A stretch of 64,000 nucleotides of DNA, taken from the IMG/VR virus record IMGVR_UViG_3300021400_000046, positions 1 through 64,000 of that record, one strand, 5' to 3'. The translations under genes were made by a program, and so were the position numbers. Positions 124 to 19,521 of this stretch are shown piece by piece. The stretch's first letter is position 1. The number at the start of each line of letters is the position of its first letter. The stretch is from a virus. Taxonomy: Duplodnaviria; Caudoviricetes. The notes beneath the pieces are model-generated. The model had not been told where the DNA came from. It was given only the letters and a program-made list of their open reading frames with translations, and searched no databases.

Positions 124-135
124 TCGCAGCCTCCT

Positions 136-342
136 TTACTTTCCGTAGGTCTGCCGGTATTCATCAGCGGGAATGACTCTATCGGCTCTCGCCAGGACGC
201 TCATGCCAGCCGGACAAGCCTCAAATTCGTCAAAGATATTTCTAACGATCTGCGCAGCCTCCGCTCTTTCATAGCCCTTCGCAAGAATGACTTTCATAAC
301 TCGCTGGAAGTTGTAATATGTTCTGTTCTTGATTTCGCGCAT
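136..342 (-). CDS. hypothetical early protein
   Basis: 68-aa ORF with AGGAGG RBS. Confidence 0.7.
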   Translation of the reverse strand: MREIKNRTYYNFQRVMKVILAKGYERAEAAQIVRNIFDEFEACPAGMSVLARADRVIPADEYRQTYGK

Positions 343-383
343 TTCAGATTGCCTCCTGTTTTGTTTGTTTTCAATACTGTTTT

Positions 384-896: not shown

Positions 897-943
897 TGTT
901 CTGTACCTCCGTGAAATTGATTGGTAATTCATTTACCATAGTC

Positions 944-972
944 ATTATAGCATAGTTATATAACTATGTCAA
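944..972 (-). promoter_or_regulatory. sigma-A promoter with palindromic operator in the spacer
   Basis: TTGACA-17-TATAAT with extended TG; perfect 18-bp palindrome CATAGTTATATAACTATG at 951-968. Confidence 0.85.
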
Positions 973-1165
973 GAACTTTTTTCAAATTTTCACAACTTTT
1001 TTTAACGGCACAAAATCATGTTCGCTGCGGCATTCCAGAACCAGGCGCAAGAGGCAACAGGAGGCACTGGAATGGCTCAGATTTGATTTTAGGCACTCGA
1101 TAGGGTAGTAAGCCATTTACTGCTATCGCTCGATATAAGACGTTCTGGAGGCTTGTGGCGAAGTA

Positions 1166-1411
1166 TTAAACGTCAATATAAAGGCAAGGCACATTAATTT
1201 CTTTTCCGGTTTTATCTCTGATCGTTAATTCACCGTACTCGCTGCCTTTTACAATCTGATTTCTTGTCTTTTCTGATACGCGAAAAATATCTTCATGGTC
1301 AATCCAGACTGTTTCAACAATCCATCCACTGTCACGGATTACACAGAGCTGCAATGCGTTTGTTTTATGCAATAGAAATTCTTTACAGGTTATCTTTTCT
1401 TTCATCTTCAT
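1166..1411 (-). CDS. hypothetical early protein
   Basis: ORF; start probably ATG 1411 or 1405 rather than 1483. Confidence 0.6.
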   Translation of the reverse strand: MKMKEKITCKEFLLHKTNALQLCVIRDSGWIVETVWIDHEDIFRVSEKTRNQIVKGSEYGELTIRDKTGKEINVPCLYIDV

Positions 1412-1739
1412 CGTCCTCGTCGGTAATTTCGACAACTCCAAGCATTTCACTGATATACCTGTCTGGATCATGATAGAAACCAAAGCAATTATTCAGAATT
1501 GATTTTTCAAATCCACCTTCTACATCGTTAATGTTCATTCGATTGCCGTCATAGTCCGTCAGGGAATAGCGATCAGGGAATTTCTGTTCCTTGCTGCCGT
1601 ACAGAGTATAGATAACCTTCCATTCCTTATCTCCAAGCGCTGCCTTGATCTTCTCCGGCGCAACGTCTGGATTCTGCTCCACAGCCAAATCATACAAGGA
1701 TTTCAAAAGGTCAATCTTGAAAGTAACTTTTCGCATCAC
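1383..1739 (-). CDS. hypothetical early protein
   Basis: 118-aa ORF, AGGAG RBS, acidic C-terminus. Confidence 0.7.
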   Translation of the reverse strand: MMRKVTFKIDLLKSLYDLAVEQNPDVAPEKIKAALGDKEWKVIYTLYGSKEQKFPDRYSLTDYDGNRMNINDVEGGFEKSILNNCFGFYHDPDRYISEMLGVVEITDEDDEDERKDNL

Positions 1740-1748
1740 ATATTTCTC

Positions 1749-1955
1749 CTATTCATAATCAATCAGATTAAAACTGTCATAAATGTCTGTATTCTCTCTG
1801 TACTTATCTGCAAGACGTTCTCCAATGTCGCGCCAGTTAGAAGGGCAATTGATCGTCCGTGCAAATTCAGAAATCAGATCGGAAATTTTGTCAGCCATTT
1901 CGTAGTCTTTACTTTCTGCCGCAAGCTCGATCATATCACAGATGATTTCAAACAT
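1749..1955 (-). CDS. hypothetical acidic protein
   Basis: 68-aa ORF with AAGGAG RBS. Confidence 0.65.
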   Translation of the reverse strand: MFEIICDMIELAAESKDYEMADKISDLISEFARTINCPSNWRDIGERLADKYRENTDIYDSFNLIDYE

Positions 1956-1967
1956 TTTTATTCTCCT

Positions 1968-2141
1968 TTACTTGCTTTCGTTATGTTCTACAATCAATTC
2001 AAATACATTGTATTTGCTGTATTGCGTATTTTCATTATTGTTTTTAGAAATAACTTCAATATAGCTCATGCCAAACCAGGCAATCACCAGAATGGAGATT
2101 GTGATTGTCACTGTCCAAATAGCTTTCTTGAAGTGTTCCAT
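1968..2141 (-). CDS. small membrane protein (not in ORF track)
   Basis: AGGAGG RBS, MEHFKKAIWTVTITISILVIAWFGMSY..., one hydrophobic helix. Confidence 0.6.
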   Translation of the reverse strand: MEHFKKAIWTVTITISILVIAWFGMSYIEVISKNNNENTQYSKYNVFELIVEHNESK

Positions 2142-2153
2142 GAAGTATTCCTC

Positions 2154-2387
2154 CTATGTATTGAGAAGTTTGAAACCTACCAGGCTATTCACTTGCCGCG
2201 CCGTCATTCGCTGCCATGTGCCACGCTTAGACAGACCGGGAGTCTGATAGATTGGATTGCCATAAACCATGCCAGAGGCTTGACTATAATGGAGCTGATA
2301 TACTCTGCCATAGGTTACAATGTACTGTTCACTTTCATAAATCTTCCGCGCTTCTGCATCGTTGATTTGGATTTTTCCGATCTTCAT
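2154..2387 (-). CDS. hypothetical early protein
   Basis: 77-aa ORF, GGAGG RBS, first gene after promoter 2424-2452. Confidence 0.7.
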   Translation of the reverse strand: MKIGKIQINDAEARKIYESEQYIVTYGRVYQLHYSQASGMVYGNPIYQTPGLSKRGTWQRMTARQVNSLVGFKLLNT

Positions 2388-2423
2388 TGCTGCGCCCTCC
2401 GTAGTAATTTATTTACTATAGAT

Positions 2424-2452
2424 ATGTTACCACAGATTTCTCAGTTTGTCAA
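2424..2452 (-). promoter_or_regulatory. sigma-A promoter
   Basis: TTGACA-17-TAACAT with extended TG; A-rich upstream element; same leader hairpin as promoters at 944 and 7047. Confidence 0.7.
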
Positions 2453-2492
2453 GCAAAATTTCATAACATTTTCTAAAAATCTGAAAATCTTT

Positions 2493-2690
2493 TTATGTAC
2501 GTATCGAATAGGTTTTTCCACTATGATCCATCCACAAGTGAAAGCCGGATTCTGTCTTGTTGATAACTGCGCCTTCGTCTCTCCGCGCCAGGTCAAGGGT
2601 GTATTTCATCTTCTGCATTGCTTCGTATGGCGTTTTCGCAACAAAGCAATATGTTTTCCCATCGTCCAGGCAATGTACATTCTGCGTCAT
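2493..2690 (-). CDS. hypothetical early protein
   Basis: 65-aa ORF with AGGAGG RBS. Confidence 0.7.
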   Translation of the reverse strand: MTQNVHCLDDGKTYCFVAKTPYEAMQKMKYTLDLARRDEGAVINKTESGFHLWMDHSGKTYSIRT

Positions 2691-3180
2691 TGTAGAGCCT
2701 CCTATTTATCGTTAAAAACCACATAGACGTTTTTATACCAGCTCGAATTATACTTTTCTTTGCCAATTTACTGCACTACCTTTTCAATCACATTCACCCA
2801 ACTGCAAGTCGTAGAGAACGCATAGGTATTTGCTTCGGCCTTTTCCTTCGTGCTATATACGCCGATAATCTGCGGCGCTGCATCATTGTACAAAGCGATT
2901 GCAATATAAACTTTCTGCTGCTTCATAATGCTCTCTCCATTTAATTCATAGTTGATTTGTAGGAATTAAATACTTTTCGTCAATTTTTCCAAAATATGCC
3001 ACGGTATATTTAGAAAAGCGGATTATTGATTCTGTATTCTGCGTCCTTCTTGCGCTTGTACCTGCCGTGATCCGTGCGCGTGGAATAGCAATGATTGAGA
3101 TTATCCCAAATCACCCACCAGGTTTTGCCGTCCAGCGCCGTGCGTTTTACTGCCTTATACCGTCGTTCCATAATATCCTC

Positions 3181-3957
3181 CTATTTGTTGTTTGCAACTA
3201 TCGACAAGCACAACAGGCCAGCAGTTAAAGAGTCACCACCGCAAGCATTGATTGTGCCCTCGATCTTGTTCAGAAACGGATCGCCTTCTCCGTGCTGCTC
3301 CTTCGGTTTTACCGTGACAAACTCCGGCATATAAACCGTAATCATTTTATGAAATTTTCCGACATCTTCTGTATCTCCGCGCCCTGCCGCAACCTTATTC
3401 GCATAGGCCACAGCCGCGTCACTATCCAGCGCGGAAAAATAATTGTCGTTGCGAATGTTCGAATTGTAATGGTATTCGACAAACATTCCAGTGCCGCCAT
3501 GATTTCCACCAAGCCCGAATGTATTGATACAATAGCGCGGTTCATTCGTCTGCTCGTACACTTCGCCGGAAATCAGAATGAAATTTTCCATTTCATGCTT
3601 GACAGCAAGCAACATCTTTTCGCGGTCTGGATGTTCACCATCACGCCACTCTCGCGGGAAAAACCAGGAACAATTTTCGTTTCTATGCTTCAATTCATCC
3701 AGTACCGTGCTAATTCCACGTTCTCCCGGATCGCAAATGAAACCTCCGCGCTTGACTTTGCTCCAAAGTTTTCCATTATAGAAATAGATTTTACCCTTGC
3801 CAGAATAGGAATTATCCTCAAATGCAAGCCGCAAATCTTCCGGTTTTACTTCGCACAATTCCGCATCGACATATTCATCCCGCTCAGTGTAGCGCGGTTT
3901 TCTGCAACGTGGCGGGATATAGCTTTCTTCGTATTTGATCCATGTTTTAATCTTCAT
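3181..3957 (-). CDS. hypothetical phage protein (MKIKTWIKYEESYIPPRCRKPR...)
   Basis: Long ORF; start reassigned to ATG 3957 after GGAGG. Confidence 0.8.
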   Translation of the reverse strand: MKIKTWIKYEESYIPPRCRKPRYTERDEYVDAELCEVKPEDLRLAFEDNSYSGKGKIYFYNGKLWSKVKRGGFICDPGERGISTVLDELKHRNENCSWFFPREWRDGEHPDREKMLLAVKHEMENFILISGEVYEQTNEPRYCINTFGLGGNHGGTGMFVEYHYNSNIRNDNYFSALDSDAAVAYANKVAAGRGDTEDVGKFHKMITVYMPEFVTVKPKEQHGEGDPFLNKIEGTINACGGDSLTAGLLCLSIVANNK

Positions 3958-4002
3958 TGTAAATCCCTCCAGATTTTCCGTTATAACATTCACAATTTAG
4001 AA

Positions 4003-4239
4003 TTATGCCACATCATACAGATAGGACAAATATGGGTAAATCCGCTTTGTCTCTCTGATTGCGATTTTATATGCTCTGTCAGAGCATCCGCGACTTTCCA
4101 GATAGAAAACGCCGCCTCGCTGGATAATCGACAAGCAATCCCGATCAATCGTGCCTTTTAACAGTCTGCTTTCTGTCTGCTTGAAAACGTCCCAAGTCAG
4201 ATATTTTTCGGGAATTGCGTATTTTGCCATATTTTCCAT
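4003..4239 (-). CDS. hypothetical early protein
   Basis: 78-aa ORF with GGAGG RBS. Confidence 0.7.
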   Translation of the reverse strand: MENMAKYAIPEKYLTWDVFKQTESRLLKGTIDRDCLSIIQRGGVFYLESRGCSDRAYKIAIRETKRIYPYLSYLYDVA

Positions 4240-4264
4240 TTACATACCTCCAAATTTTCCACTT

Positions 4265-4501
4265 TCAGATCAATGCAGATTTCGGAACTTCGATAACTTC
4301 ACATCTGGAATAAAGTGTTATATTCTTTTCCGCATATCTCTCAGCTTGTTTCAGGCTCGTGTAACACTTTTCAGGATTGATATTTTCCAATGGGTATTCG
4401 ACAAAATAATTGAATTTTCCGAAAATGCAAGCCGGGTTTTCCTTTGTCTGTTTCCTATGCGGGAACCACTGGACAATCAAATAATAATGCTTACTTTTCA
4501 T
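4265..4501 (-). CDS. hypothetical early protein
   Basis: 78-aa ORF overlapping the end of the upstream gene. Confidence 0.6.
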   Translation of the reverse strand: MKSKHYYLIVQWFPHRKQTKENPACIFGKFNYFVEYPLENINPEKCYTSLKQAERYAEKNITLYSRCEVIEVPKSALI

Positions 4502-5000
4502 AACTTACCCATCCAATCTTTTCCAATTCTTCATCATTCGGCTCCCACACTGTTTCATATTCGTCAGTATTTGGATTATACTCCGCAACACTTACGCTGC
4601 AATTATAAATCATATAATCCCAATCCTCTTTCTCTTTTTCCGTTGGTATTACTTCTTGTCTTTCTGAATCATATTTCCAATTCATACTTTCCTGCATCAT
4701 CCATTCGATCAGAGTATCAAGTGCAGATTCTTTTGCCGCTTCTAATGAATCTGCACCATACCCATCACTGCATGAATCATTGTCCCACTGGACAAGATAG
4801 GCCGATTTTTTGATTGGCTGCGGCCTGCTGATTGCAAGAATGGCATTTGCAACATCAATGTACGGATATTTCATGCCATCAGGGAATGCGGTTTTCAGAT
4901 CATCCAGGATTTTGCTTGCAAATTCTCCACCGTATGTATAGCAATCACATCCTGCATCAACAAGGATTTTCATTGCGTAGTTTTCCAAAGTTTCCATCAA
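4491..5000 (-). CDS. hypothetical acidic early protein
   Basis: 169-aa ORF with AGGAGG RBS; D/E rich. Confidence 0.75.
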   Translation of the reverse strand: MMETLENYAMKILVDAGCDCYTYGGEFASKILDDLKTAFPDGMKYPYIDVANAILAISRPQPIKKSAYLVQWDNDSCSDGYGADSLEAAKESALDTLIEWMMQESMNWKYDSERQEVIPTEKEKEDWDYMIYNCSVSVAEYNPNTDEYETVWEPNDEELEKIGWVSYEK

Positions 5001-5013
5001 ATTTTCCTCCTAT

Positions 5014-5199
5014 TCAATATAATGCTTTGAATGCCTGAATGATCTTTTCTCTGCGTTCTGGATCGTTGTCGCCGCTTGTTCTATACGTATTCCATGTCCC
5101 ATCTCTCCCTGCATAGCAACTGATTTCTTCTTCTCTGCCATCCAGAAGAATGCGCATATAAATATGACTGGAATAGTTATGTTCTACCAACTTTTCCAT
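5014..5199 (-). CDS. hypothetical early protein
   Basis: 61-aa ORF with GGAGG RBS. Confidence 0.65.
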   Translation of the reverse strand: MEKLVEHNYSSHIYMRILLDGREEEISCYAGRDGTWNTYRTSGDNDPERREKIIQAFKALY

Positions 5200-5215
5200 T
5201 CAGATTTTCCTCCCT

Positions 5216-5422
5216 TCAGCATATCAAATCTATTTCTCTATTTTCTTCATTGATCGTTTTCCTGTAACTACTGATATAATAGATTTCTTCTCCGCTGATT
5301 CCCTTTTTACACAAATCACAGATAGGATTTTCCACTTGTCCAGCATCTAAAATGTCAACTATATTCTGCCTCCGCATAGTGTTATGAATTGATTGTAAAC
5401 ACTTTCGGCAAACCGCAAGCAT
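5216..5422 (-). CDS. small CxxC...CxxC zinc-binding protein
   Basis: CRKC and CDLC motifs; AGGAGG RBS; similar layout to 10049-10219. Confidence 0.65.
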   Translation of the reverse strand: MLAVCRKCLQSIHNTMRRQNIVDILDAGQVENPICDLCKKGISGEEIYYISSYRKTINEENREIDLIC

Positions 5423-5440
5423 AAAATTGTCCTCCTACTA

Positions 5441-5704
5441 TTATTCAGCGAATAATCTGCATGAATCAAAGTAGACACATTCGCCGGTTGCCGTCTCTCT
5501 TGCCGCCGTCCAATGGAATGCGCTGCGGGATAGGCCACTAATAAAAGCCCTTCTTCCCAAAAGTTCAATAGCCTTGTCCATGCTGATTTTCTTGCCACGG
5601 TATTCATAATCTGTTTTCGCCGCTGCCGCCTCGATCTGAAAGAAATTGCCTTCAACGAACCCCATATCCCACAAGATTTTCTTATCTTCAAGTGTCAGTT
5701 TCAT
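5441..5704 (-). CDS. hypothetical early protein
   Basis: ORF; GGAGG RBS before MKLTLEDKK. Confidence 0.7.
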   Translation of the reverse strand: MKLTLEDKKILWDMGFVEGNFFQIEAAAAKTDYEYRGKKISMDKAIELLGRRAFISGLSRSAFHWTAARETATGECVYFDSCRLFAE

Positions 5705-5719
5705 AGTTACCTCCATTTC

Positions 5720-5923
5720 TTACAGACAAGAGAAATGCGAAAGAAGGAGCTGCCCGATCCGGTTCCCATTCATATCATAGAACATACCGAAAGCATCACC
5801 ATCTTCATCCATCCATACCGTCATACGGTCAAGGATATATCTCTGCCCTTTAATAATTTGATTAGGGAAGTTGTTTCTTGTTTTGATACATTTTACTTCA
5901 AGCATTGCGATATTCTTTCCCAT
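5720..5923 (-). CDS. hypothetical early protein
   Basis: ORF; GGAGG RBS before MGKNIAM. Confidence 0.65.
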   Translation of the reverse strand: MGKNIAMLEVKCIKTRNNFPNQIIKGQRYILDRMTVWMDEDGDAFGMFYDMNGNRIGQLLLSHFSCL

Positions 5924-6042
5924 GATAAGTACCTCCAAATTTTCCGATTATAAATATGCTTTCAGGTATCGAACATTGCCCAGCCGGTCAACACTCTTTA
6001 ACCGTGCGTATTCTGCGGTCACTCGGTCAACCGTGAAATTGT

Positions 6043-6312
6043 TTAGTACAGAAAGTCCATCTCAGACATTTTTCCAATCAAATACTTATACAGGTTTTCC
6101 AAAGTCACACCACAGAAACTTGTATTATTTGTAATGTCAATTGCTTGCATGATATACGGGACAAATCTGAAATTTTCTGCTGTAACATCCATGTGAATGA
6201 AATTTTCCATCATGTAAAACTTAGCAACGTCCTTTTTGCTGCCATCCTTATACACGACGTAAACCACAACGGTATTTTCATATCTATCAAATCGAACACT
6301 CATAATCGCCAT
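6043..6312 (-). CDS. hypothetical early protein
   Basis: 89-aa ORF with AAGGAGG RBS. Confidence 0.65.
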   Translation of the reverse strand: MAIMSVRFDRYENTVVVYVVYKDGSKKDVAKFYMMENFIHMDVTAENFRFVPYIMQAIDITNNTSFCGVTLENLYKYLIGKMSEMDFLY

Positions 6313-6324
6313 TGTACTACCTCC

Positions 6325-6489
6325 TTATGCTGCCCATGAGCGGGTTTTTGTATTGTACTTCCATTCCTCAATCACAATGATTTCACAGTCTGGATTGAAA
6401 AGCTCCGCATGAACTTCGTCCCATCTTGTGCATACTTTATGATGGAATTTTCCATATAGATTGTATTCGATGTAGATATAAGTCAGCAT
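6325..6489 (-). CDS. hypothetical small protein (not in ORF track)
   Basis: GGAGGAAAATCTG-ATG; MLTYIYIEYNLYGKFHHKVCTRW... Confidence 0.6.
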   Translation of the reverse strand: MLTYIYIEYNLYGKFHHKVCTRWDEVHAELFNPDCEIIVIEEWKYNTKTRSWAA

Positions 6490-6526
6490 CAGATTTTCCT
6501 CCAAATTTTCCGTTCAGAAATATGCC

Positions 6527-6997
6527 TTATGCTGCGTAGTGCTTCATCCGCACAAGCTCCATATCGAAATCCAGAAGGTGATTGTTCTTGTATTCTTCCA
6601 CGATTGCACCGTGGAGCCGGTCAACATACTTTCCGAAGGCGGCGATCAGCTTCTCCGCATTGCCCGTTGTCTTTCTGTATGAGATTTTCCGATAATCACA
6701 GTAATAAATGCTTTCTGCCGGTTTTGTCTTGATGGAACTTTTGATTGCCGTCATGGTCATGTTCTCCGGCAGATCGTCCTCCACCGTCCAGCCGCTCGGC
6801 ATATGGATCATAAAGGAGGCGCGGATCATATCATTACCGGCGATATTGTTCGGGCATTCCCGCTCATTCTCGGCCATCAGGCAATCAATGGTCAGGCTTG
6901 TTCCAAAGCACCGGTAAACCTTGCAAGCCACAAAGGACTTTCCAAATGCCGCCTTGTATGCGGCCTCAATCTGCTGCTTAAATTCTGCGAATTTCAT
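6527..6997 (-). CDS. hypothetical early protein
   Basis: Start reassigned to ATG 6997 after AAGGAGG; first gene after promoter 7047-7075. Confidence 0.75.
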   Translation of the reverse strand: MKFAEFKQQIEAAYKAAFGKSFVACKVYRCFGTSLTIDCLMAENERECPNNIAGNDMIRASFMIHMPSGWTVEDDLPENMTMTAIKSSIKTKPAESIYYCDYRKISYRKTTGNAEKLIAAFGKYVDRLHGAIVEEYKNNHLLDFDMELVRMKHYAA

Positions 6998-7046
6998 GGT
7001 GTTACCTCCTTCAAATTTTCCGTGTGGTAAATCATTTACCATAGCT

Positions 7047-7075
7047 ATATTAACATAGATATATCACTATGTCAA
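7047..7075 (-). promoter_or_regulatory. sigma-A promoter with operator copy
   Basis: TTGACA-17-TAATAT with extended TG; CATAGATATATCACTATG at 7054-7071. Confidence 0.8.
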
Positions 7076-7104
7076 GCAGTTTTTTCAAGTTTTTCAAATT
7101 ATTT

Positions 7105-7425
7105 TTACGTCCAAACCAGGCAAATCCCATTCGCATTTTCCGCAATGTCAATGCGATCTGTTTCTTCCTGCGCTGCGTTGATTGCTGCGATTGCTTCCGG
7201 CGATCCGTCGAAAATCACATCACAATGGAAATTGTAAATTTTCCCATCCAAGTCAACAATGCCGGTATGCACCTTATATCCTTTTGCGTTCGGATTTTCC
7301 GCTTTATATGCTGCGATCAGTTCCCGATTGCTGTCATTCAGCCGGTCGAATGCTTCCGGCATTCCCCAATTTCGCCAGTCGATATAGGCTGTGTCGTTGT
7401 TTATTTTCGCCGTATGTAAAGTCAT
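7105..7425 (-). CDS. hypothetical early protein
   Basis: 106-aa ORF with AAGGAGG RBS. Confidence 0.7.
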   Translation of the reverse strand: MTLHTAKINNDTAYIDWRNWGMPEAFDRLNDSNRELIAAYKAENPNAKGYKVHTGIVDLDGKIYNFHCDVIFDGSPEAIAAINAAQEETDRIDIAENANGICLVWT

Positions 7426-7439
7426 AAGATTTTCCTCCT

Positions 7440-7847
7440 TCAGATTGTCCAGGGATTCATTTCTTCGATCCCATCATAGATTTCTGCGATATGTTCTCTT
7501 GTGAAGTTTTCCAGCTCGTCAATGTAGTATTTCTGTCCTTTGGTCAGGTTCTTATTGTGGTATCTCATGTAGTCGATCAGATTTTCCGCTGCTCTCATAA
7601 CTGCGCGATAGTAAAGCTCCTTCAGCTCGGCGCGTTCATGTTCTTCCGTCGTTTCTCCGGCATTCTGCAAAAGCTCCACCGTCTCAAAGTTTCCGTTGCG
7701 ATAGGCTCCGGCGATCAGACTATGAAATTTTCCAAACTTGAAATAGCGGCGATTGATTTCTCCACCGTTGTCATAGTAGTTTTCCAGCGTGGTATTATCT
7801 CCGCTGCAAGCGGCCATCCACAATTCATCAATGGTCAGATTTTCCAT
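7440..7847 (-). CDS. ankyrin-repeat-like protein
   Basis: LWMAACSGD...YYDNGGEIN and SLIAGAYRNGNFETVELLQNAG resemble two ANK repeats; start ATG 7847 after AAGGAGG. Confidence 0.6.
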   Translation of the reverse strand: MENLTIDELWMAACSGDNTTLENYYDNGGEINRRYFKFGKFHSLIAGAYRNGNFETVELLQNAGETTEEHERAELKELYYRAVMRAAENLIDYMRYHNKNLTKGQKYYIDELENFTREHIAEIYDGIEEMNPWTI

Positions 7848-7860
7848 TTGTTCGCCCTCC

Positions 7861-8175
7861 TTAAATGTCGTATGTCCTGTAATACGGGAAGTAGTTTTTG
7901 AAATCTTCCCATGCCTGTTCATGCTCCATGATCCAGCCGATGATTTCTTCCTTCGACGGTTCCAGGTCGATTTTCCGCGCCATTGGTCTATGCTTTGCCA
8001 TCATATTTTCCGCTTCAATCAGTGTTTCAAATCCACCGGCGATTGAGATTCCGAATGCCGTATCTCCGTCAAATTCAGTATTGAATACAGAATAGTGATT
8101 GTAAAATTTTCCGTTCGGATAACGATAGATAATGTGCTTTTCGTTTCCGTCTCTGTATTCTGCGAATTTTTCCAT
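7861..8175 (-). CDS. hypothetical early protein
   Basis: Start reassigned to ATG 8175 (MEKFAEY) after AAGGAGG. Confidence 0.7.
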   Translation of the reverse strand: MEKFAEYRDGNEKHIIYRYPNGKFYNHYSVFNTEFDGDTAFGISIAGGFETLIEAENMMAKHRPMARKIDLEPSKEEIIGWIMEHEQAWEDFKNYFPYYRTYDI

Positions 8176-8188
8176 TTGTGTTACCTCC

Positions 8189-8554
8189 TTATTCGTTTGC
8201 CATGCGCTTGCATTCTTCCAAAAGCCGGTTGAAATTTTCCGGCGTTGCTTCCAGCATCCAATCGAAATTGATCTTGCATTCGTGCGGGTAAATCGTCGGA
8301 TTGTATTTGCCCGTGCAATTATCATGTTCGTCGTAAACGTAAACCATCATATTGATCGTTTCAGGAATGAATTTTTCCATATAACCGTGCTTGATCCAGA
8401 GATTCATAAGGTCATGCCGATTTTTCCGATTATGCTGCGTAGTAGAGAAGTAAACCACAATGCGCTCGTTTTTGTTGTTGGTAAACTGTACCGGTTCATA
8501 CTGTTTATGTCCAGCGCCGATATTTCTAACTTCGATCAATTCCAAATTTTCCAT
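8189..8554 (-). CDS. hypothetical early protein
   Basis: Start ATG 8554 (MENLELIE) after AAGGAGG. Confidence 0.7.
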   Translation of the reverse strand: MENLELIEVRNIGAGHKQYEPVQFTNNKNERIVVYFSTTQHNRKNRHDLMNLWIKHGYMEKFIPETINMMVYVYDEHDNCTGKYNPTIYPHECKINFDWMLEATPENFNRLLEECKRMANE

Positions 8555-8565
8555 AATGTACCTCC

Positions 8566-8865
8566 TTATTTGTTCAGCATCCATCCGCTATATCTCGCGG
8601 ATTCAATCGTATCGTCCATGATTTTTTCCGTGCCGTTGTCGTTCATCGTAATGGCTGCACAATCTCCGATCTGCCAATCTTCCACGCCGTAGAACGTCCA
8701 GGCGTTTCCGTTGAAATCTTCCACCGTGACAACATCGGATTCACGATCCAGCGCAATGACTTTTGTGGTCAATGCGTATCTATGATTTTCCGTGGATTTT
8801 TCCGTATGAGCTGCGCAAGCTGTCAGCATTGCCAGACAAAGGATAATGATTGAGATTTTCCGCAT
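8566..8865 (-). CDS. putative lipoprotein
   Basis: MRK + hydrophobic stretch + LTAC lipobox; beta-rich body. Confidence 0.7.
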   Translation of the reverse strand: MRKISIIILCLAMLTACAAHTEKSTENHRYALTTKVIALDRESDVVTVEDFNGNAWTFYGVEDWQIGDCAAITMNDNGTEKIMDDTIESARYSGWMLNK

Positions 8866-8877
8866 TGTACTCCCTCC

Positions 8878-9363
8878 TTATGAAATTTTCCGATATAATA
8901 CTTCGCCATTGCTAAACAGTGCGGAACAAACCAGCATCGAATACCCACGCTTCGCCAGATTTTCCAGCCAGCGGCAAATCTTCCGCTTCTCTGCGTCCGC
9001 TGCTCTGATTGCCGCGCTCCGGCACATATCGAAATAATAATGTGCATCTTCATTGTCAATGCAATATTCCGAATCCCGATCCAGGTCAAAGCGATTCTCG
9101 AATTTTTCCGTCACAAAGAATTGGAAACCTTCGTAATATCCGCTGATAATCGTCACGTTATGGAATTTCAAATTTTCCGTGAACGTCTCAGCGATCTCCC
9201 GCGCATTTTCCGCTTCATCTTCCAGCCAGCCATAGAATGCGCCTTCGGTCATTTCTTCTCCAAATTCTTCCATATACTTTTCCGCAACGTCCGCGAAACT
9301 TTCCAGACCACCGCAAACCAGCGGCATATCATAATTCATTCTTCTGAAATTAGCAGTACCCAT
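8878..9363 (-). CDS. hypothetical acidic early protein
   Basis: Start ATG 9363 (MGTANF) after GGAGG. Confidence 0.75.
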   Translation of the reverse strand: MGTANFRRMNYDMPLVCGGLESFADVAEKYMEEFGEEMTEGAFYGWLEDEAENAREIAETFTENLKFHNVTIISGYYEGFQFFVTEKFENRFDLDRDSEYCIDNEDAHYYFDMCRSAAIRAADAEKRKICRWLENLAKRGYSMLVCSALFSNGEVLYRKIS

Positions 9364-9399
9364 GAGATTTTCCTCCATAGTCATTAGATTTTCCAGCAT

Positions 9400-9481
9400 T
9401 GGCGACGGCTTGTAACGTCCTGCCAGGCTGCATTATGCCGCGATTTTTCCACCTCCTTCGCGGCCTACTCTGCATTTGTCA
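9400..9481 (-). ncRNA. Twister ribozyme, circularly permuted (P5-type)
   Basis: Minus strand AAUGCA-GAGUAG-[P1 GCCGCGA/UCGCGGC]-AU|AAUGCAGC-[P3]-GACG-UUACAAGC-CGUC; T1 UUAC/GUAG and T2 GC/GC pseudoknots; predicted cut between 9435 and 9434. Confidence 0.85.
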
Positions 9482-9649
9482 GAAATTTTCCATCAGGTAT
9501 TCAAATCTGTTTTGAAATGCCTCCATTGCCGTTTGTTTTGTCCATCCGATATGAACGGCAAATTTGATCCATCTTCCGTCCGGCGCTGAAATTTTCCAAT
9601 ACTCGCGCCCGAAATAATCCTTTACAAGCTCGACTTTTCCGATCTGCAT
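9479..9649 (-). CDS. hypothetical small protein
   Basis: Start ATG 9649 (MQIGKVEL) after AAGGAGG. Confidence 0.65.
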   Translation of the reverse strand: MQIGKVELVKDYFGREYWKISAPDGRWIKFAVHIGWTKQTAMEAFQNRFEYLMENF

Positions 9650-9662
9650 GAGATTTTCCTCC

Positions 9663-9815
9663 TTAATATTCGTCATATTTTCCAGCATGGAATTTTCCGA
9701 TTGCTTCTTCATCGTTTTCCGCATAGATTCTCGCGTGGAAATTTCCGTCAATCAGGACGAAATAGCCCCATCTGTCAGCCCACAAGCTGCCGAATGCTTT
9801 TCTTGCAATCTCCAT
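9663..9815 (-). CDS. hypothetical small protein (not in ORF track)
   Basis: AGGAGG RBS; MEIARKAFGSLWADRWGYFVLIDG... Confidence 0.6.
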   Translation of the reverse strand: MEIARKAFGSLWADRWGYFVLIDGNFHARIYAENDEEAIGKFHAGKYDEY

Positions 9816-9827
9816 CAAATTTTCCTC

Positions 9828-10034
9828 CTAATCGTCATAGTCATAATCGCAACCGTCATCGTCGTTTTCGATAGGATCGAAATACAAGCAACGGTATTGA
9901 TTTACGATTTCTTCCAGAGATTTTCCGCTATCAGCCGCTTCCCGTCTTAGGTCATAGGCGCAACATCCGCCTTTATTGTTGTCGCATCTCTTGCAATGCT
10001 CGAATGTGCAAGCGATTGTTTCCACATAACGCAT
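9828..10034 (-). CDS. small Cys-rich protein
   Basis: AAGGAGG RBS; CTFEHCKRC...CC; acidic tail. Confidence 0.6.
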   Translation of the reverse strand: MRYVETIACTFEHCKRCDNNKGGCCAYDLRREAADSGKSLEEIVNQYRCLYFDPIENDDDGCDYDYDD

Positions 10035-10048
10035 CAAATTTTCCTCCT

Positions 10049-10219
10049 TCAAATCAATTCGAACAATTCATCGAATCCGTATTCTTCACACCAATCGCAT
10101 TTGGTATCTTCGGGATCGTCGGCAAATTCTCCGTCCGTCCAAATCAGGCGGGTGATTTGCTTGCCTTCATGAGCTTCAATTCCCATCAGGCAATGGCGGC
10201 AAACTTTCATATTTTCCAT
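10049..10219 (-). CDS. small CxxC...CxxC zinc-binding protein
   Basis: CRHC and CDWC motifs; AAGGAGG RBS. Confidence 0.65.
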   Translation of the reverse strand: MENMKVCRHCLMGIEAHEGKQITRLIWTDGEFADDPEDTKCDWCEEYGFDELFELI

Positions 10220-10260
10220 TTGGATTTTCCTCCTTAGATTTTCCAATTGATTTTCCGTTT

Positions 10261-10326
10261 TGGGCTGCCATCATCAGGCCGGATAGCCCATCTTCCGGCG
10301 ACGGGCATTTGCTGCCCGTTTCGGCA
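10261..10326 (-). ncRNA. Hammerhead ribozyme, type II with pseudoknot
   Basis: UGCC-GAAA-[III CGGGC/GCCCG]-UC|-[I GCCGGA/UCCGGC]-CUGAUGA-U-GGCA; loop I UGGGCU pairs with 3' AGCCCA; predicted cut between 10300 and 10299. Confidence 0.88.
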
Positions 10327-10349
10327 AATTTTCCGAATGCCGCACCTCC

Positions 10350-10556
10350 TTAATTTTTCCGCACGGTAAATTCATCATCGGCCACGATCTGAAAATGCTT
10401 GTTTTCAAATAATAGCGTCGTTCCTCCTTTTCCGTCGTTTCCAGGAATGATCCCTTCAAAAATTACATGGATTTCCGGATTTCTGATAGACTTTCCGCAA
10501 TAATCGCCGTGTTTCTTTTCCAGCTCATTCCATTCTGATTTCTTGATATAATACAT
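10350..10556 (-). CDS. hypothetical small protein
   Basis: Start ATG 10556 (MYYIKK) after GGAGG. Confidence 0.65.
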   Translation of the reverse strand: MYYIKKSEWNELEKKHGDYCGKSIRNPEIHVIFEGIIPGNDGKGGTTLLFENKHFQIVADDEFTVRKN

Positions 10557-10569
10557 GGTATTTCCTCCG

Positions 10570-10971
10570 TCATGCCGCGATAGCATCCATATATTGCTCT
10601 GTTTTCACTTCTGCCGAAAGTTTGCAAAGCACATTGTACCTTTTAGATGTTTGTGCATCCCCGATCCGTTCATACTTGCCAATTCCGCTTGATACATAGC
10701 AACCAGAATGTGAAGGCCGCCATACCGTGATATGCAACATGGGAATATATCTTCCCGTTTCCACATTCCAGCGGCATCCATGTTCATTCGTTTTTGTTTC
10801 GTATTCGTTCCGATATTCGATCTTAAATTCAACGACATTCCCGTTGTCAAGCTCAATCTTTTTCGTCAACGTCTTTTCGCCCCAAATCACATAATACTGT
10901 AAATCAAGGCCGAATCCGTTTTGCGCTTGCGCGTTCCATTTGTTAAATTGTTCTCTTGTGATTTTTGCCAT
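10570..10971 (-). CDS. hypothetical early protein
   Basis: 133-aa ORF with AAGGAGG RBS. Confidence 0.75.
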   Translation of the reverse strand: MAKITREQFNKWNAQAQNGFGLDLQYYVIWGEKTLTKKIELDNGNVVEFKIEYRNEYETKTNEHGCRWNVETGRYIPMLHITVWRPSHSGCYVSSGIGKYERIGDAQTSKRYNVLCKLSAEVKTEQYMDAIAA

Positions 10972-10973
10972 TG

Positions 10974-11162
10974 TTATACCTCCTTGATAATTTCGCCTGT
11001 TTCATCGTCAATAGCCGCGATCTTGCATCCAACGGAAAAACCGCTGTTTTCGATATGCCGCCGATAATCTGGATCGTTCATTGCCGCAATTGCCGTATTC
11101 ATGGGATATTTTGCAATCTTAATCCATGCCCCATCATGGGCGTAAATCGTCGCTGTTTTCAT
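10974..11162 (-). CDS. hypothetical small protein
   Basis: 62-aa ORF with GGAGG RBS, directly downstream of the type I hammerhead. Confidence 0.7.
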   Translation of the reverse strand: MKTATIYAHDGAWIKIAKYPMNTAIAAMNDPDYRRHIENSGFSVGCKIAAIDDETGEIIKEV

Positions 11163-11190
11163 TGTGATTCCTCCGTTGTTGTTTTTGGAT

Positions 11191-11271
11191 TATGCCGGAC
11201 GCCCCATTTCCGTCACTATTGCAACGGCGCGGGCGTTTCGTCTTAATTCTCAAAGACTCATCAGCGGCATT
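11191..11271 (-). ncRNA. Hammerhead ribozyme, type I
   Basis: AUGCCG-CUGAUGA-[II GUCUU/AAGAC]-GAAA-[III CGCCC...GGGCG]-UC|-CGGCAU; canonical core and GUC triplet; predicted cut between 11198 and 11197. Confidence 0.92.
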
Positions 11272-11277
11272 AGGGCA

Positions 11278-11607
11278 TTAGATGAATTTGCAATCGTAAA
11301 CCATGCCGAATGTCTCAACCATGATGGATTCTTGATTGAATTGCGCCTTCAGATACTCAACCATATCGGCCATATTCAGATCCCCCGATTCATCGGTTAC
11401 AATCTCAATGCGGATTGACGGCTCGCGCACAATATTGCCCGTGCTGCCCATCTTATACACGCCTTCGGCCTCCAGCATCGTAAAGGCGAAAACGTGAAAA
11501 CGGTTTAACAGAGTATCGGCCATCATGGATTTTGCGGCCTTCGTCTTGATTTCTTGCTTTTCGGAATCCTTATCAAATAATCCGATAGTCAATTGAAATT
11601 TTACCAT
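11278..11607 (-). CDS. putative SAM lyase-like / DUF3574-like protein
   Basis: GVY...REPS...QFNQESIMV parallels T3 SAMase GCY...EEKT...WEQDCVLV; first gene of the outermost early operon; start ATG 11607. Confidence 0.5.
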   Translation of the reverse strand: MVKFQLTIGLFDKDSEKQEIKTKAAKSMMADTLLNRFHVFAFTMLEAEGVYKMGSTGNIVREPSIRIEIVTDESGDLNMADMVEYLKAQFNQESIMVETFGMVYDCKFI

Positions 11608-11763
11608 TGTATTTTCCTCCGTTGTTGTCGTTGTTTTCATAACTGTTTTTCAATGCCTAATGGGATACGGTTTTTAATGGCTGCCGTTCAAAACCATTTG
11701 ATACAGATTTCTATGGCCGTATCAAATCGGCCTATTAAGTTTTCTTTTTCGGATTGCTTTTCT

Positions 11764-11781
11764 TGTTCAGTTTTCAAGATA
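11764..11781 (-). promoter_or_regulatory. rrn-like boxA antitermination element
   Basis: TATCTTGAAAACTGAACA in a roughly 260-nt untranslated leader, similar to Firmicutes rRNA-leader boxA. Confidence 0.55.
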
Positions 11782-11875
11782 CACATGAAACTAATTTTTC
11801 AACCGTCGATCCGTGGATTGCATTGCCTCCTTCCGTGGATTTGCTGCGCGGCTGTGATTTCGTTTTCATGGCTTT

Positions 11876-11903
11876 ATTATAGCGCGATCTCTGCAAATGT
11901 CAA
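11876..11903 (-). promoter_or_regulatory. sigma-A promoter of the outermost early operon
   Basis: TTGACA-16-TATAAT with A-tract UP element. Confidence 0.8.
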
Positions 11904-11970
11904 GACTTTTTTCATGATTTTTTTGAAAAAGATTGATTTTAGGCAATTCGCACAAATGGGAGCTGAAAAG

Positions 11971-11988
11971 CATAGTTATATCACTATG
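11971..11988. promoter_or_regulatory. third copy of the 18-bp operator
   Basis: CATAGTTATATCACTATG; partial fourth copy CATAGTGATATA at 12897-12908. Confidence 0.7.
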
Positions 11989-12126
11989 TCTTTTGTTCAA
12001 ACTGCACAACGGATCGGCCTGGACAGAGGAGGAAATGAATAACCTACTGAATTAGTAGGTAGATAAAATATTTTCGCTGCATCGTCAATTTTCGGAAAAT
12101 TTTGATTGCAATTCTGATCTGATTTC

Positions 12127-12155: not shown

Positions 12156-13182
12156 ACAATATAGGCAAGAGAAAACCATGTAATGTGAAATATTGGGACA
12201 TCTGATATGGCATATTAGATGATATAATATAGCATATTAGCTCAAAAAATTTTGAAATGGGCTGGAAAATTCGGGCTTTTGCCGAAATGGATATACCAGA
12301 TTTTTGCCTGTAAAGGGAAAAACCTTGACAATAAAACAAGTATTTCATGGACGATCTGAAAAGCGGCAAAATTCAAACAAAAATTTGATTTCTTGCAATT
12401 CTGTATTTTGCGCTTTTATAGAATTGCACAAAGTACCAATAACAGAGGGGGATATATATACATTATAAAAAAGAAATTGACCAGGGCAGCCGGTCAAATG
12501 TGATCCCCTCTAACCTCCCTTTTCAAAAAATCATCGAATAAAATCGTTCCTTTTCTTCTCATTTTAATCCCACTGTAAAATCCCAATTATTGCAATTCTA
12601 CCGAAAATGAAATTTTAGTTTTACAAAGCACCAGTTTATCGCATTTTGAAAAATGCACTTCGGTTCAATTTCAATTCAAGTCTTTGCTGCAAAGCACCAA
12701 TATTTCGATGTTAATTTCGGGAAACTAATTCTTCAAAAATCGCACCAAATAATTTCGTTAAAACCGCAATTTTCAACTTACCAATGTTTCGCATTTTGAA
12801 AATTTTATTTACACCATTGCTGCAAGTCAATACTCAGTAACATATTAAATTCGGGAATGGTTTTCTGAAAAATACTTTGATTTTTGTTCCGAAAAACATA
12901 GTGATATATTATCGAATTGGATATTACGATCTGATAACACGTTAATTTTGTATTGCCGCGAAATTCAATTCGCTTTTCAGTAACATTGTCTACAAATCAA
13001 AATTTAATTTCAAAGATGAAGAACTACACTACTTGATATAGTTTGTAAAATTCTTATTGATATTTTATCTATTATTTGAAGTCAGGACTGCATTCAAAAA
13101 GAATATCACACTTTCCCATTTTGATTCATTCTTGTTGGTTAATAGCTTGATGTAAAAATGGAAAAGTGTATTATTTCTTTTT

Positions 13183-13386: not shown

Positions 13387-13415
13387 TTGACAATTTTGCC
13401 TTAATCTGTTACAAT
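13387..13415 (+). promoter_or_regulatory. sigma-A promoter of the rightward operon leading to the RNAP gene
   Basis: TTGACA-17-TACAAT with extended TG. Confidence 0.8.
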
Positions 13416-19447: not shown

Positions 19448-19521
19448 TTAAGGACTTACTTATAGTTTGTCTGAATAAAGGCTTCTGCTATTACTGTGCC
19501 GGAAAACAGAGTAGTAATTAT

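Follow-up and report, generated by a model that had tools for sequence, protein, structure and literature searches.

Is the GGAAAAT word, repeated through the early genes of a gut or rumen phage, a real signal, and if so, how may it be read? The window analysed here, a stretch of 64,000 nucleotides, opens a 149.6-kb circularly assembled SPbeta/c-st-like phage genome with a YonO-type RNA polymerase. The original prediction described a strand-polarised field of this heptamer written through unrelated early genes, proposed that it is an oriented protein-binding code laid over coding DNA, and named a codon-preserving shuffle and a genome-wide count on coding strands as the tests that could overturn it. 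Both tests were carried out here, and neither refuted it.

Over-representation and strand polarity of the GGAAAAT word

The observation itself was confirmed. ATTTTCC occurs 53 times on the plus strand of the window; 51 of these copies lie at 3354-11617, and 50 of those lie at 3354-10334. In the opposite orientation, GGAAAAT on the plus strand is absent from 1-12 kb and occurs only 10 times in the whole window. The shorter word GGAAAA occurs 75 times on the coding (minus) strand of the field. An order-2 Markov model expects 5.5 copies against the 50 observed, a 9-fold excess, and GGAAAAT is the most abundant and most over-represented 7-mer of the field. In dinucleotide shuffles, HGGAAAATH is expected 12.3 +/- 3.3 times against 56 observed. 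The site is in fact about 12 nt long, with the extended consensus Y-GGAAAAT-Y-Y-S-A; YGGAAAATYYSA occurs 16 times, all on the minus strand and all at 3350-9699, whereas the shuffles give 0.38 +/- 0.63.

The excess is not explained by codon usage. Inside 22 called CDS there are 32 copies, against 12.8 +/- 2.9 under a synonymous-codon shuffle (maximum 26 in 1000; z = 6.6) and 2.7 +/- 1.7 under codon-order permutation. The rest of the same coding strand (70-135 kb) holds only about 3 copies, and the 57-kb plus arm holds about 10-12. All three reading frames are used (18/8/6), giving MEN, AEN, GKF, RKI and WKI in the encoded proteins. The boundaries given in the original prediction also hold: no copy lies below 3354, and a single copy lies between 10335 and 11617. 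A smaller cluster of 5 copies is located outside the window, at 146.9-149.0 kb of the genome. There is no 10.5-bp phasing of the copies.

Organization of the early region

The field and the elements around it are arranged as follows.

3354-10334 (minus): dense field of 50 exact GGAAAAT (about 7 per kb), plus about 15 one-mismatch variants, on the coding strand of about 21 small orphan early genes.
7047-7075 (minus): internal sigmaA-like promoter (10 of 12 matches, with TG) followed by the palindromic operator GGTAAATGATTTACC; the field continues across it.
9404-9474 (minus): twister-P5 ribozyme with motif copies about 10 nt away on either side.
10211-10334 (minus): promoter-proximal edge of the field, with five copies in 124 bp packed around the hammerhead II ribozyme; this is the highest local density.
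10259-10326 (minus): type II hammerhead ribozyme with a motif copy within 4 nt on each side; a homologue with the same flanks is in the related contig L125.
10350-11607 (minus): block of four immediate-early genes with no GGAAAAT copy inside it; the first gene, 11278-11607, is SAM-lyase-like.
11611-11617 (minus): isolated copy overlapping the Shine-Dalgarno (SD) sequence of the first early gene.
11876-11903 (minus): consensus sigmaA promoter (TTGACA-16-TATAAT) that starts the leftward early operon and lacks the palindromic operator found at other early promoters.
13414-13818 (plus): first gene of the divergent RNA polymerase operon, encoding a basic 134-aa protein (p13414; pI 9.5) with a conserved C-terminal alpha/beta domain; it is only a weak candidate reader.
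15494-18289 (plus): YonO-type single-subunit RNA polymerase, which was used as the anchor to find relatives and places the phage among SPbeta/c-st/Enterocloster-phage-like viruses.

The original prediction placed copies of the heptamer inside the twister P1 loop. This requires correction, since the loop of the twister-P5 carries GGAAAAA rather than the exact heptamer, and the exact copies flank the ribozyme at 9388 and 9485; the ribozyme at 10259-10326 is a type II hammerhead. Two ribozymes pass Rfam's gathering score and a third, a hammerhead, is sub-threshold, and two of the three have motif copies on both sides.

In the window, 16 of 21 field genes have a copy at -40 to +10 of the start. 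These copies sit in registers that overlap the SD (GGAGGAAAAT, which occurs 10 times at ribosome-binding sites), the start codon (ATGGAAAAT) or the base just 5' of the SD.

Conservation in related phages

The same heptamer field, on the same strand and in the same place, occurs in at least 15 related contigs (labelled L below) whose early genes are mostly unrelated. Sense-strand polarity is strict in every relative, with counts in the two orientations of 33/2, 22/1, 20/1, 18/0, 16/1, 14/0 and so on. The field starts 1.4-2 kb downstream of the main early sigmaA promoter, and this nearly motif-free zone recurs in the relatives; as with the isolated copy at 11611-11617 in the window, L122 also has a single copy about 300 nt downstream of its main early promoter. 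The fields span 3-18 kb with up to 7 copies per kb, and their intensity varies 6-fold between relatives. The heptamer is nevertheless invariant across phages with 60-76% identical polymerases, a p13414 homologue as low as 33% identical, and 32-43% GC.

The word depends on position, not on the gene. Orthologues carry it only when they lie inside a field, often through synonymous codon choice, as in ACG GAA AAT against ACC GAA AAT and CCG GAA AAT against CCT GAA AAT. Sites are 2-3-fold enriched at initiation regions in most relatives. However, in most relatives the majority of sites are inside ORFs, and in L125 and L177 there is no enrichment at gene starts; the argument for one operator per cistron therefore rests mainly on the window itself.

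Possible reading of the word at the RNA level

Based on the results presented above, the interpretation in the original prediction is partly supported. Its core inference holds: this is a strand-polarised signal laid over coding DNA, selected at the nucleotide level and not produced by codon bias. Of the three mechanisms it proposed, a centromere or spreading region is not supported, as there are no tandem or phased arrays, no ParB gene was found in three of the four complete genomes (G000-G002), and a palindrome-reading partition protein would not give strict strand polarity. A Chi/KOPS-like signal is neither shown nor excluded, and its geometry fits poorly (see below). GGAAAAU sites on early mRNA are the reading that we rank first, although only tentatively.

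In this view, (Y)GGAAAAT(YYSA) is a cis-acting word kept by selection on the sense strand of the delayed-early part of the leftward early arm, which host RNA polymerase transcribes from sigmaA promoters. It would be an 11-12-nt single-stranded site with an invariant GGA at its 5' end, an A-rich tail and pyrimidines after it. A conserved factor would bind or cut these sites; this factor could be a host ribonuclease or RNA-binding protein, or an unidentified phage protein made from the divergent RNA polymerase operon. Copies that overlap the SD sequence or start codon would block initiation, and internal copies would speed decay, so that together they would shut off the host-takeover genes as a group. 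The first four genes, the polymerase operon and the late genes, lacking the word in this model, would escape. What the sequence analysis establishes is that the word exists, is strand-specific, is selected at the nucleotide level, depends on position rather than on gene and is conserved across the clade; that RNA rather than DNA is read, which factor reads it, and whether the effect is shut-off rather than protection are inferences.

The original prediction stated that no described system matches, which is too strong, since the T4 RegB/S1 site and the stoperators of cluster A mycobacteriophages are close analogues, although membership of either is not established. The RegB/S1 target of T4 early mRNAs (GGAGRAYARAA; PMC1702504) is likewise an 11-nt single-stranded site with an invariant GGA at the 5' end, an A-rich tail and a pyrimidine at position 7, found on the sense strand only, confined to early transcripts and often part of the ribosome-binding site. 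On the other hand, position 4 is A here and T4 RegB cuts GGAA poorly (PMC1702504), so that the likeness is of architecture only; the tail here is pyrimidine-rich, the inferred host is a Firmicute-type organism whose S1 differs, and cleavage is inferred by analogy alone. At gene starts, the sites also resemble the T4 RegA translational operators (AAAAUU..AUG) of about 30 early and middle mRNAs (PMC3014915), as both are unstructured A-run-U sites overlapping or just 5' of the AUG of many unrelated early genes (AAAAUUAUG against GGAAAAUAUG or GGAAAAUCUCAUG). However, RegA sites have no strict consensus and are only at initiation regions, whereas here the heptamer is exact and most copies are internal.

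Several other results favour this reading. The invariance of the heptamer across divergent phages fits a conserved reader better than a co-evolving immunity repressor, and the ribozymes indicate that the operon is already under heavy RNA-level processing. No second box was found within +/-50 nt, which, together with the absence of helical phasing, argues against promoters and nucleoprotein arrays.

Other results do not favour it. No reader was found: CsrA, ParE/RelE and S1-domain genes did not match in four complete genomes, and a RegB search also returned nothing, although its control was not recovered either. The p13414 family has no similarity to RegB, and its fold matches only weakly to Alba, R3H, IF3-C and winged-helix domains (Z <= 4). 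The predicted accessibility of the sites is not above that of composition-matched 7-mers (0.128 against 0.178). Late and polymerase-operon transcripts do not avoid the word (10-12 copies against about 7 expected in 57 kb), and copies also occur in non-coding repeats upstream of the SAM-lyase promoter in L126 and L127. In addition, all genes in every field are co-oriented, so sequence alone cannot separate RNA-level reading from polar DNA-level reading.

Alternative explanations

The main rival, which we consider possible but less likely, is a stoperator-like polar roadblock on DNA. A phage-encoded monomeric DNA-binding protein, either a lysogeny factor or an early-to-middle shut-off factor, would bind the asymmetric 12-bp sites and stop host RNA polymerase only in the orientation of transcription. 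Many weak sites in series would be needed because the early polymerase may be antiterminated, and the host-takeover genes would be silenced while the operator-less main promoter could still express its first four genes. The site is asymmetric and about 12 bp long, with degenerate flanks like a DNA position-weight matrix, and its orientation strictly follows transcription, as shown for the stoperators of L5 (gp71) and TipsytheTRex, where flipping a site abolishes repression (PMC9283540). As with those 12-13-bp sites, which serve common silencing of many unrelated genes, there are many copies and short intergenic spaces are favoured; here the intergenic space is saturated, as in the 124 bp at the field's proximal edge. 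The field begins after the first four genes of a promoter that lacks the palindromic operator, the sites show no RNA accessibility signal, and the copies in L126 and L127 lie in non-coding DNA upstream of a promoter. All four genomes carry 2-3 tyrosine-recombinase genes and an SPBRE-like operator system, so a temperate lifestyle is plausible. However, no copy or near-copy sits at any promoter, whereas stoperator repressors also use operator copies. The density is about 10-fold that of cluster A phages, half or more of the sites are inside ORFs, and the field is confined to one early arm rather than spread genome-wide. The word is invariant across very divergent relatives, whereas immunity operators usually diverge. 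No candidate repressor or repressor homologue was identified, and the link to p13414 is weak.

A Chi-like or other translocase-directed polar signal is unlikely. In this view, the word or its complement ATTTTCC would be recognized by host AddAB/RecBCD or another motor and be packed into DNA that is exposed first, or into a long terminal repeat, so that a nuclease entering from a genome end is attenuated. The signal is polar, bounded and apparently dose-driven, since all cheap positions are used, and Chi works per encounter with a probability below 1, so arrays help. The block also has a distinct composition, 42-44% GC against 36-39% elsewhere. Chi, KOPS and SRS are likewise short oriented words over-represented by selection, acting per encounter and written through coding DNA in any frame, but they are genome-wide properties of the host, usually G-rich, at 0.1-3 per kb, whereas this word is local to a phage block. 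Whichever side a DNA end lies on, the geometry is awkward, as the densest part faces the promoter side but stops 1.5 kb short of it, leaving the promoter and first genes unprotected. Described Chi sequences are G/C-rich. In MAGs that carry related phage contigs, bins that are unreliable as hosts, the word occurs at only 0.36 per kb. Finally, the heptamer is shared by phages of 32-43% GC, which probably infect different hosts, whereas Chi differs between genera.

Equally unlikely is a sponge or decoy, in which the copies, on abundant early RNA or on replicating DNA, would titrate a host nucleic-acid-binding protein such as a global RNA-binding regulator, a defence nuclease or a silencer without regulating the genes that carry them. 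The placement looks quantity-driven, with every free intergenic nucleotide used, up to four copies in 46 nt, and one-mismatch variants also enriched; the block sits behind a consensus promoter, and the word is invariant across hosts. Against this, no host protein is known to have this specificity, CsrA-type GGA sites do not explain the AAAAT tail, a dedicated non-coding sponge would be cheaper than recoding 20 genes, and the field's intensity varies between relatives.

A by-product without a dedicated reader, spread by an early-gene ribosome-binding-site consensus (GGAGGAAAAT..ATG), GAA-AAT codon preference and recombination between gene-boundary microhomologies, is largely refuted. The window does have 10 GGAGGAAAAT and 12 ATGGAAAA, the enriched 7-mers of L178 are AGGAAAA and GAGGAAA, gene content is highly mosaic, and GGAAAAT is 1.2- to 3.6-fold commoner than its reverse in the four MAGs searched. 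However, internal sites keep the full flanks Y..YYSA in all three frames, the excess survives the synonymous shuffle, other genes of the same phage with the same codon usage and SD lack the word, and orthologues gain it only inside fields, by synonymous changes.

A base-pairing target for a phage or host small RNA carrying AUUUUCC, which would repress many early mRNAs at once, is very unlikely: C/U-tolerant positions at -1, +7 and +8 would fit pairing to G, and two ATTTTCC copies lie on the sense strand of the non-coding region just upstream of the early promoter (12094-12100 and 12264-12270), but that region is not conserved in relatives, the best copy is part of a palindrome and is offset by one base from the consensus, the S at +9 does not fit a single pairing partner, and no sRNA was found by Rfam.

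Phage-specific promoter or regulatory cassettes before mini-genes, such as T4 MotA boxes and PeSL cassettes, are also co-oriented motifs repeated through arrays of small early genes with mosaic content. In contrast to these, the GGAAAAT copies have no second promoter element at any fixed distance within +/-50 nt, many of them are deep inside ORFs, and their spacing is far denser than one per gene.

Genomic context of the field

The contig that begins with the window is 149,631 bp long, and its ends overlap by about 93 nt, so the assembly is circular. Genes run on the plus strand from 13.4 to 70 kb and on the minus strand from 70 kb round to 11.9 kb. A 931-aa ORF is a YonO-type single-subunit RNA polymerase, which is 37-38% identical to those of Clostridium phage c-st and Enterocloster phages and more distantly related to that of SPbeta. 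Relatives carry YonJ/YonG-like late genes and an HU gene. The leftward operon consists of tightly packed small genes with strong Shine-Dalgarno sequences and starts at a perfect sigmaA promoter. Its first gene is SAM-lyase-like. When more than 20 field and operon proteins were compared with Pfam, PHROGs and NCBIfam, they were orphans, apart from a weak SAM-lyase match, phrog_21515 and SprT. The early arm (1-12000) is 42-44% GC, compared with 35-40% for the rest of the window (12000-64000), and the AT-rich word itself does not account for the difference. The features are as follows.

11876-11903, minus: perfect sigmaA promoter (P11903) of the leftward early operon
11760-11790, minus: early leader containing TCTTGAAAACTGAACAA
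11192-11270, minus: sub-threshold type I hammerhead (Rfam)
10259-10326, minus: type II hammerhead ribozyme (Rfam)
9404-9474, minus: twister-P5 ribozyme (Rfam)
7047-7075, 2424-2452 and 944-972, minus: sigmaA promoters P7075, P2452 and P972, with the palindromic operator RGTAAATGAWTTACY
12093-12107: near-perfect CodY-box-like palindrome, AATTTTCCGAAAATT
13414-13818, plus: first gene of the polymerase operon (p13414)
15494-18289, plus: YonO-type RNA polymerase
19371-20133, plus arm: four tRNA genes (Asp, Tyr, Asn, Thr)
30251-30555, plus arm: group I intron (Rfam, 78 bits)

All three ribozyme candidates are in the sense orientation and punctuate the early polycistronic operon. A homologous hammerhead is found in the related contig L125 (5084-5149) and a twister in the related contig L126 (3899-3959), and in the window and in L125 the ribozymes have GGAAAAT copies on both sides. 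The leader sequence TCTTGAAAACTGAACAA has been called an rRNA-type boxA in a separate prediction on this DNA; if this is correct, the early polymerase is antiterminated, which bears on how it could be stopped.

Frequency and extent of the word

The observation in the original prediction, a strand-polarised field of this heptamer written through the early genes, holds. ATTTTCC on the plus strand, which is GGAAAAT on the coding strand, occurs 51 times between 3354 and 11617, whereas the opposite orientation occurs 0 times in 1-12 kb. In the 7.3-kb core it is the commonest 7-mer, with 50 copies against 5.5 under an order-2 Markov model, and only the Shine-Dalgarno words compare. For HGGAAAATH, dinucleotide shuffles give 12.3 +/- 3.3 against 56 observed.

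The site is longer than a heptamer, with the 12-nt asymmetric consensus Y-GGAAAAT-YYSA. Position -1 is never G, +7 and +8 are pyrimidines, +9 is G or C, and +10 is A, and these flanks are just as clear in the 26 copies that lie deep inside ORFs as in those at gene starts. The 12-mer YGGAAAATYYSA occurs 16 times, all on the minus strand and all at 3350-9699, against 0.38 +/- 0.63 in shuffles. One-mismatch variants are also concentrated in the field.

Codon bias does not explain the enrichment. Two outcomes had been named in advance as refuting, namely loss of the enrichment under a codon-preserving shuffle and an equal density on coding strands genome-wide, and neither was found. Within 22 called genes there are 32 copies, whereas a synonymous-codon shuffle, which keeps every protein and the pooled codon usage (itself inflated by the motif), gives 12.8 +/- 2.9, and permutation of codon order gives 2.7 +/- 1.7. 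All three frames are used. The remaining 65 kb of the same coding strand (70-135 kb) has about 3 copies, and the 57-kb plus arm has 10-12.

Conservation among relatives

By using the polymerase and the small protein encoded at 13414-13818 as anchors, relatives were fetched from IMG/VR, GTDB genomes and Logan/ENA assemblies. Wherever enough upstream DNA was present, the early arm next to the polymerase operon showed the same word on the same strand. The counts on the early strand against the opposite strand in these contigs (L numbers) were, for the stronger fields, L122 33/2, L123 22/1, L160 22 (not split by region), L125 20/1, L158 18 (not split by region), L172 18/0, L178 18/1 and L177 16/1; for the middling fields, L165 14/0, L166 14/0 and L162 14 (not split by region, on a truncated contig); and for the weaker fields, L126 13/1, L127 12/0, L170 9/0 and L130 8/1. 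The word was the top or near-top enriched heptamer in several of these. In three further complete genomes, the field is bounded (3.5-18 kb) and the rest of the genome is sparse.

On the other hand, more distant relatives lack the field. In Enterocloster phage PMBT24 (polymerase 38% identical), neither a field nor an alternative enriched heptamer was found, and the same result was obtained for L131, whose polymerase is 41% identical. A megablast search of the field against GenBank phages gave no match, and a scan of IMG/VR for the exact 14-mer GGAAAATTTGGAGG gave 115 single chance hits and no relatives. Contigs of this clade among the GTDB genomes (L127, L128, L129, L130 and L131), some about 150 kb and apparently whole genomes, are binned into MAGs of unrelated taxa (Gastranaerophilales, Prevotella, Ruminococcus, Faecousia, Clostridia), and those bins are therefore unreliable as host calls.

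The gene content of the fields is mosaic, and only a handful of ORFs are shared. Where orthologues exist, the copy inside a field carries the word and the copy outside does not. The sites are rarely at the same codon and are often made by synonymous choice, for example, ACG GAA AAT against ACC GAA AAT, CCG GAA AAT against CCT GAA AAT, and GGA AAA TCT against GGA AAG TTC. This is direct evidence for recurrent, position-dependent selection on the nucleotide word. The field is thus a property of a clade and of a place, not of particular genes.

Anatomy of the field

The field does not start at the promoter. In the window, one copy overlaps the ribosome-binding site of the first gene and is followed by four genes (1.25 kb) without any copy; the field then begins abruptly with five copies in 124 bp around the hammerhead at 10.2-10.3 kb and thins out towards 3.3 kb. 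A motif-poor zone of 1.4-2.0 kb after the main early promoter recurs in L122, L123, L125 and L126. Similarly, a five-copy cluster at 146.9-149.0 kb of the genome starts about 1.5 kb downstream of the second perfect promoter, P972.

In the window, 16 of 21 field genes have a copy between -40 and +10 of the start. These copies sit in registers that share bases with the Shine-Dalgarno sequence (GGAGGAAAAT), share bases with the start codon (ATGGAAAAT), or abut the Shine-Dalgarno sequence (GGAAAATYTGGAGG). The intergenic density is about 27 per kb against 4.8 per kb in coding DNA. Across relatives, the enrichment at gene starts is usually 2-3-fold, but it is absent in L125 and L177, and most copies are internal. 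The start-site preference is therefore read partly as use of the cheapest positions.

No column beyond -1..+10 carries information in 126 pooled sites, no second conserved element is found within +/-50 nt, and no TAnnnT peak is present, so that a bipartite phage promoter or regulatory cassette is not supported and the promoter reading is rejected. There is no 10.5-bp or 3-bp periodicity in site spacing. Predicted RNA accessibility shows no excess over composition-matched 7-mers.

Regulatory context

The minus arm carries ten perfect sigmaA promoters. Just downstream of the -10 of several early promoters lies the 15-bp palindrome RGTAAATGAWTTACY. These include P972, P7075 and P2452, three more beyond the window (genome 146467, 145541 and 139087), and promoters in L122 (about 4083), L130 (about 1694) and L158 (about 838). 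The palindrome is conserved across relatives and recalls the SPBRE operator bound by the recombinase-fold master repressor MrpR of SPbeta (PMC10516654), and each genome has 2-3 tyrosine-recombinase genes. The main promoter in front of the SAM-lyase gene lacks this operator, both at 11903 in the window and in every relative. A position-weight-matrix scan found no exact or near copy of the GGAAAAT site at P11903, P972, P7075, P2452 or P13387, and the word is absent from the promoters. It is therefore a second layer of control, distinct from promoter control.

The CodY-box-like palindrome AATTTTCCGAAAATT lies about 190 bp upstream of the main early promoter, outside the field, in a 1.5-kb AT-rich non-coding spacer between the divergent early operons. 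The word itself does not fit the CodY box (AATTTTCWGAAAATT), a 15-bp palindrome with W at the centre: only the left half can match, the invariant GG puts C at the W position, and the second half is not conserved. SigmaH -35, sigma54, consensus-pause and anti-Shine-Dalgarno pairing, together with a CodY half-site, were compared by eye with the consensus sequences and rejected as poor fits. In L126 (4400-5300) and L127 (5000-5950), non-coding arrays of degenerate repeats, TTTT[CG]AAAA-N2-4-CGGAAAAT-TGGCA, lie upstream of the SAM-lyase promoter, and the spacer of the window has the related TTTTCAAAATGCGA units without the word.

Candidate readers

No reader was identified among the families searched. 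The four complete genomes (G000-G003) have no CsrA, NusG, sigma-70, ParE/RelE or S1-domain gene, and ParB is present only in G003, ParB_N being absent from G000, G001 and G002. A search for the RegB endoribonuclease (PF10715) returned no match in G000-G003, and the control genomes were equally silent.

The conserved first gene of the polymerase operon belongs to an orphan family (p13414; 27 database relatives) that always sits in this position. It encodes a basic protein with three invariant cysteines and an invariant DYCFYIY block, and its model (pLDDT 75) has a predicted C-terminal alpha-beta-alpha-beta-beta domain. The best structural matches of this domain are small nucleic-acid binders (Alba, R3H, IF3-C, winged helix), but at Z <= 4 and Foldseek E > 1, which is not evidence. 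A PDB profile hit to Tus at E = 1.4 is noise, two Atlas look-ups were empty, and hhalign of the p13414 family against T4 RegB gives a probability of 0.1. The presence of p13414 first seemed to separate strong from weak fields (Mann-Whitney p = 0.004, on non-independent contigs), but it tracks field strength only loosely once more relatives are added. It is worth noting that the heptamer is identical in phages whose polymerases are 60-76% identical, whose p13414 homologues are as low as 33% identical, and whose GC content ranges from 32 to 43%. This argues for a very conserved reader, possibly host machinery, rather than a co-evolving immunity repressor.

Possible mechanisms

Based on the results presented above, the interpretation in the original prediction, an oriented protein-binding code laid over coding DNA with a centromere, a Chi/KOPS-like signal or GGAAAAU sites on early mRNA as candidates, is partly supported. 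What the analysis itself establishes is the word, its polarity, its recurrent position-dependent selection and its occurrence across the clade; that it would be read as RNA rather than as DNA, that a reader would bind or cleave it, and that it would control timing or silencing are inferred from sequence alone. All genes in every field point the same way, and a search for inverted genes inside the fields found none, so that sequence alone cannot separate a signal on the transcript from a polar signal on DNA.

An RNA-level mark is tentatively ranked first. The site partly resembles in architecture the T4 RegB/S1 target, which is 11 nt of single-stranded RNA with an invariant GGA at the 5' end, an A-rich tail, a pyrimidine at position 7, and restriction to early mRNAs (PMC1702504): the length, the GGA, the A-run and the pyrimidine at position 7 agree, whereas position 4 and positions 8-10 differ. 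At gene starts it resembles RegA operators (PMC3014915). The operon is already heavily processed by ribozymes, and the invariance of the word also fits. Against this reading, no reader was found, the accessibility result is flat, internal sites dominate in relatives, and T4 RegB itself dislikes GGAA.

A stoperator-like roadblock is ranked second and is more doubtful. In cluster A mycobacteriophages, a monomeric repressor binds more than 20 asymmetric 13-bp sites whose orientation follows transcription, and those sites stop elongation only in that orientation (PMC9283540). The 12-bp asymmetric matrix, the polarity, the intergenic packing, the abrupt start after the genes served by an operator-less promoter, and a probably temperate lifestyle all fit. 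The lack of any operator copy at the early lytic promoter, the 10-fold higher density, the confinement to the early arm and the invariance do not fit. Stoperators are dispersed over the whole genome, on both arms, mostly in short intergenic spaces, whereas here 50-88% of copies are inside ORFs. The repressor of such systems is a monomeric two-domain HTH immunity repressor encoded by the phage; the only candidate here, p13414, has no significant fold match.

A doubtful but broader reading is also compatible with the data, in which the field is a previously undescribed operon-wide sense-strand code. In this view, a dose-dependent word is written through dozens of unrelated, fast-evolving host-takeover genes of a whole clade of SPbeta-like gut and rumen phages, and a conserved factor of no known family would read it co-directionally with transcription, setting the timing or silencing of the delayed-early class independently of promoters and terminators.

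A Chi-like signal is unlikely, and its geometry is awkward; counts of the word in the MAGs that hold related contigs were uninformative about a host Chi. A sponge is equally unlikely, and a by-product without a dedicated reader is less likely still. An sRNA target is the least likely: a small-RNA partner sought in the 12.0-12.5-kb spacer was not conserved, and the apparent perfect complement there was off by one base. The centromere reading is rejected, since no phasing was found and ParB_N is absent from three of the four genomes, although the tandem-repeat scans covered the neighbouring non-coding regions and not the field.

Significance of the word

Oriented, selected words are already known, for example, Chi, KOPS, stoperators and RegB sites. 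What is new here is an exact heptamer with a 12-nt context that reaches up to 7 copies per kb, is bounded to the delayed-early block, is re-created by synonymous recoding as genes come and go, and is shared by a clade of uncultivated SPbeta-like phages from gut and rumen samples. Early host-takeover genes are the least understood part of phage genomes; they are orphan, toxic and turn over rapidly. The maintenance of one exact 7-12-nt word on their sense strand at very high density, gained anew when a gene lands in the block, gives a sequence handle on how such genes are controlled as a class. The reader could prove to be part of a Firmicute-phage counterpart of the RegA/RegB post-transcriptional shut-off of T4, or of a stoperator-like elongation block outside the actinobacteriophages. 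In addition, the word could serve as a portable tag for timed shut-off in engineered phages of laboratory strains, and it marks early or anti-defence gene blocks in metagenomic contigs of this clade.
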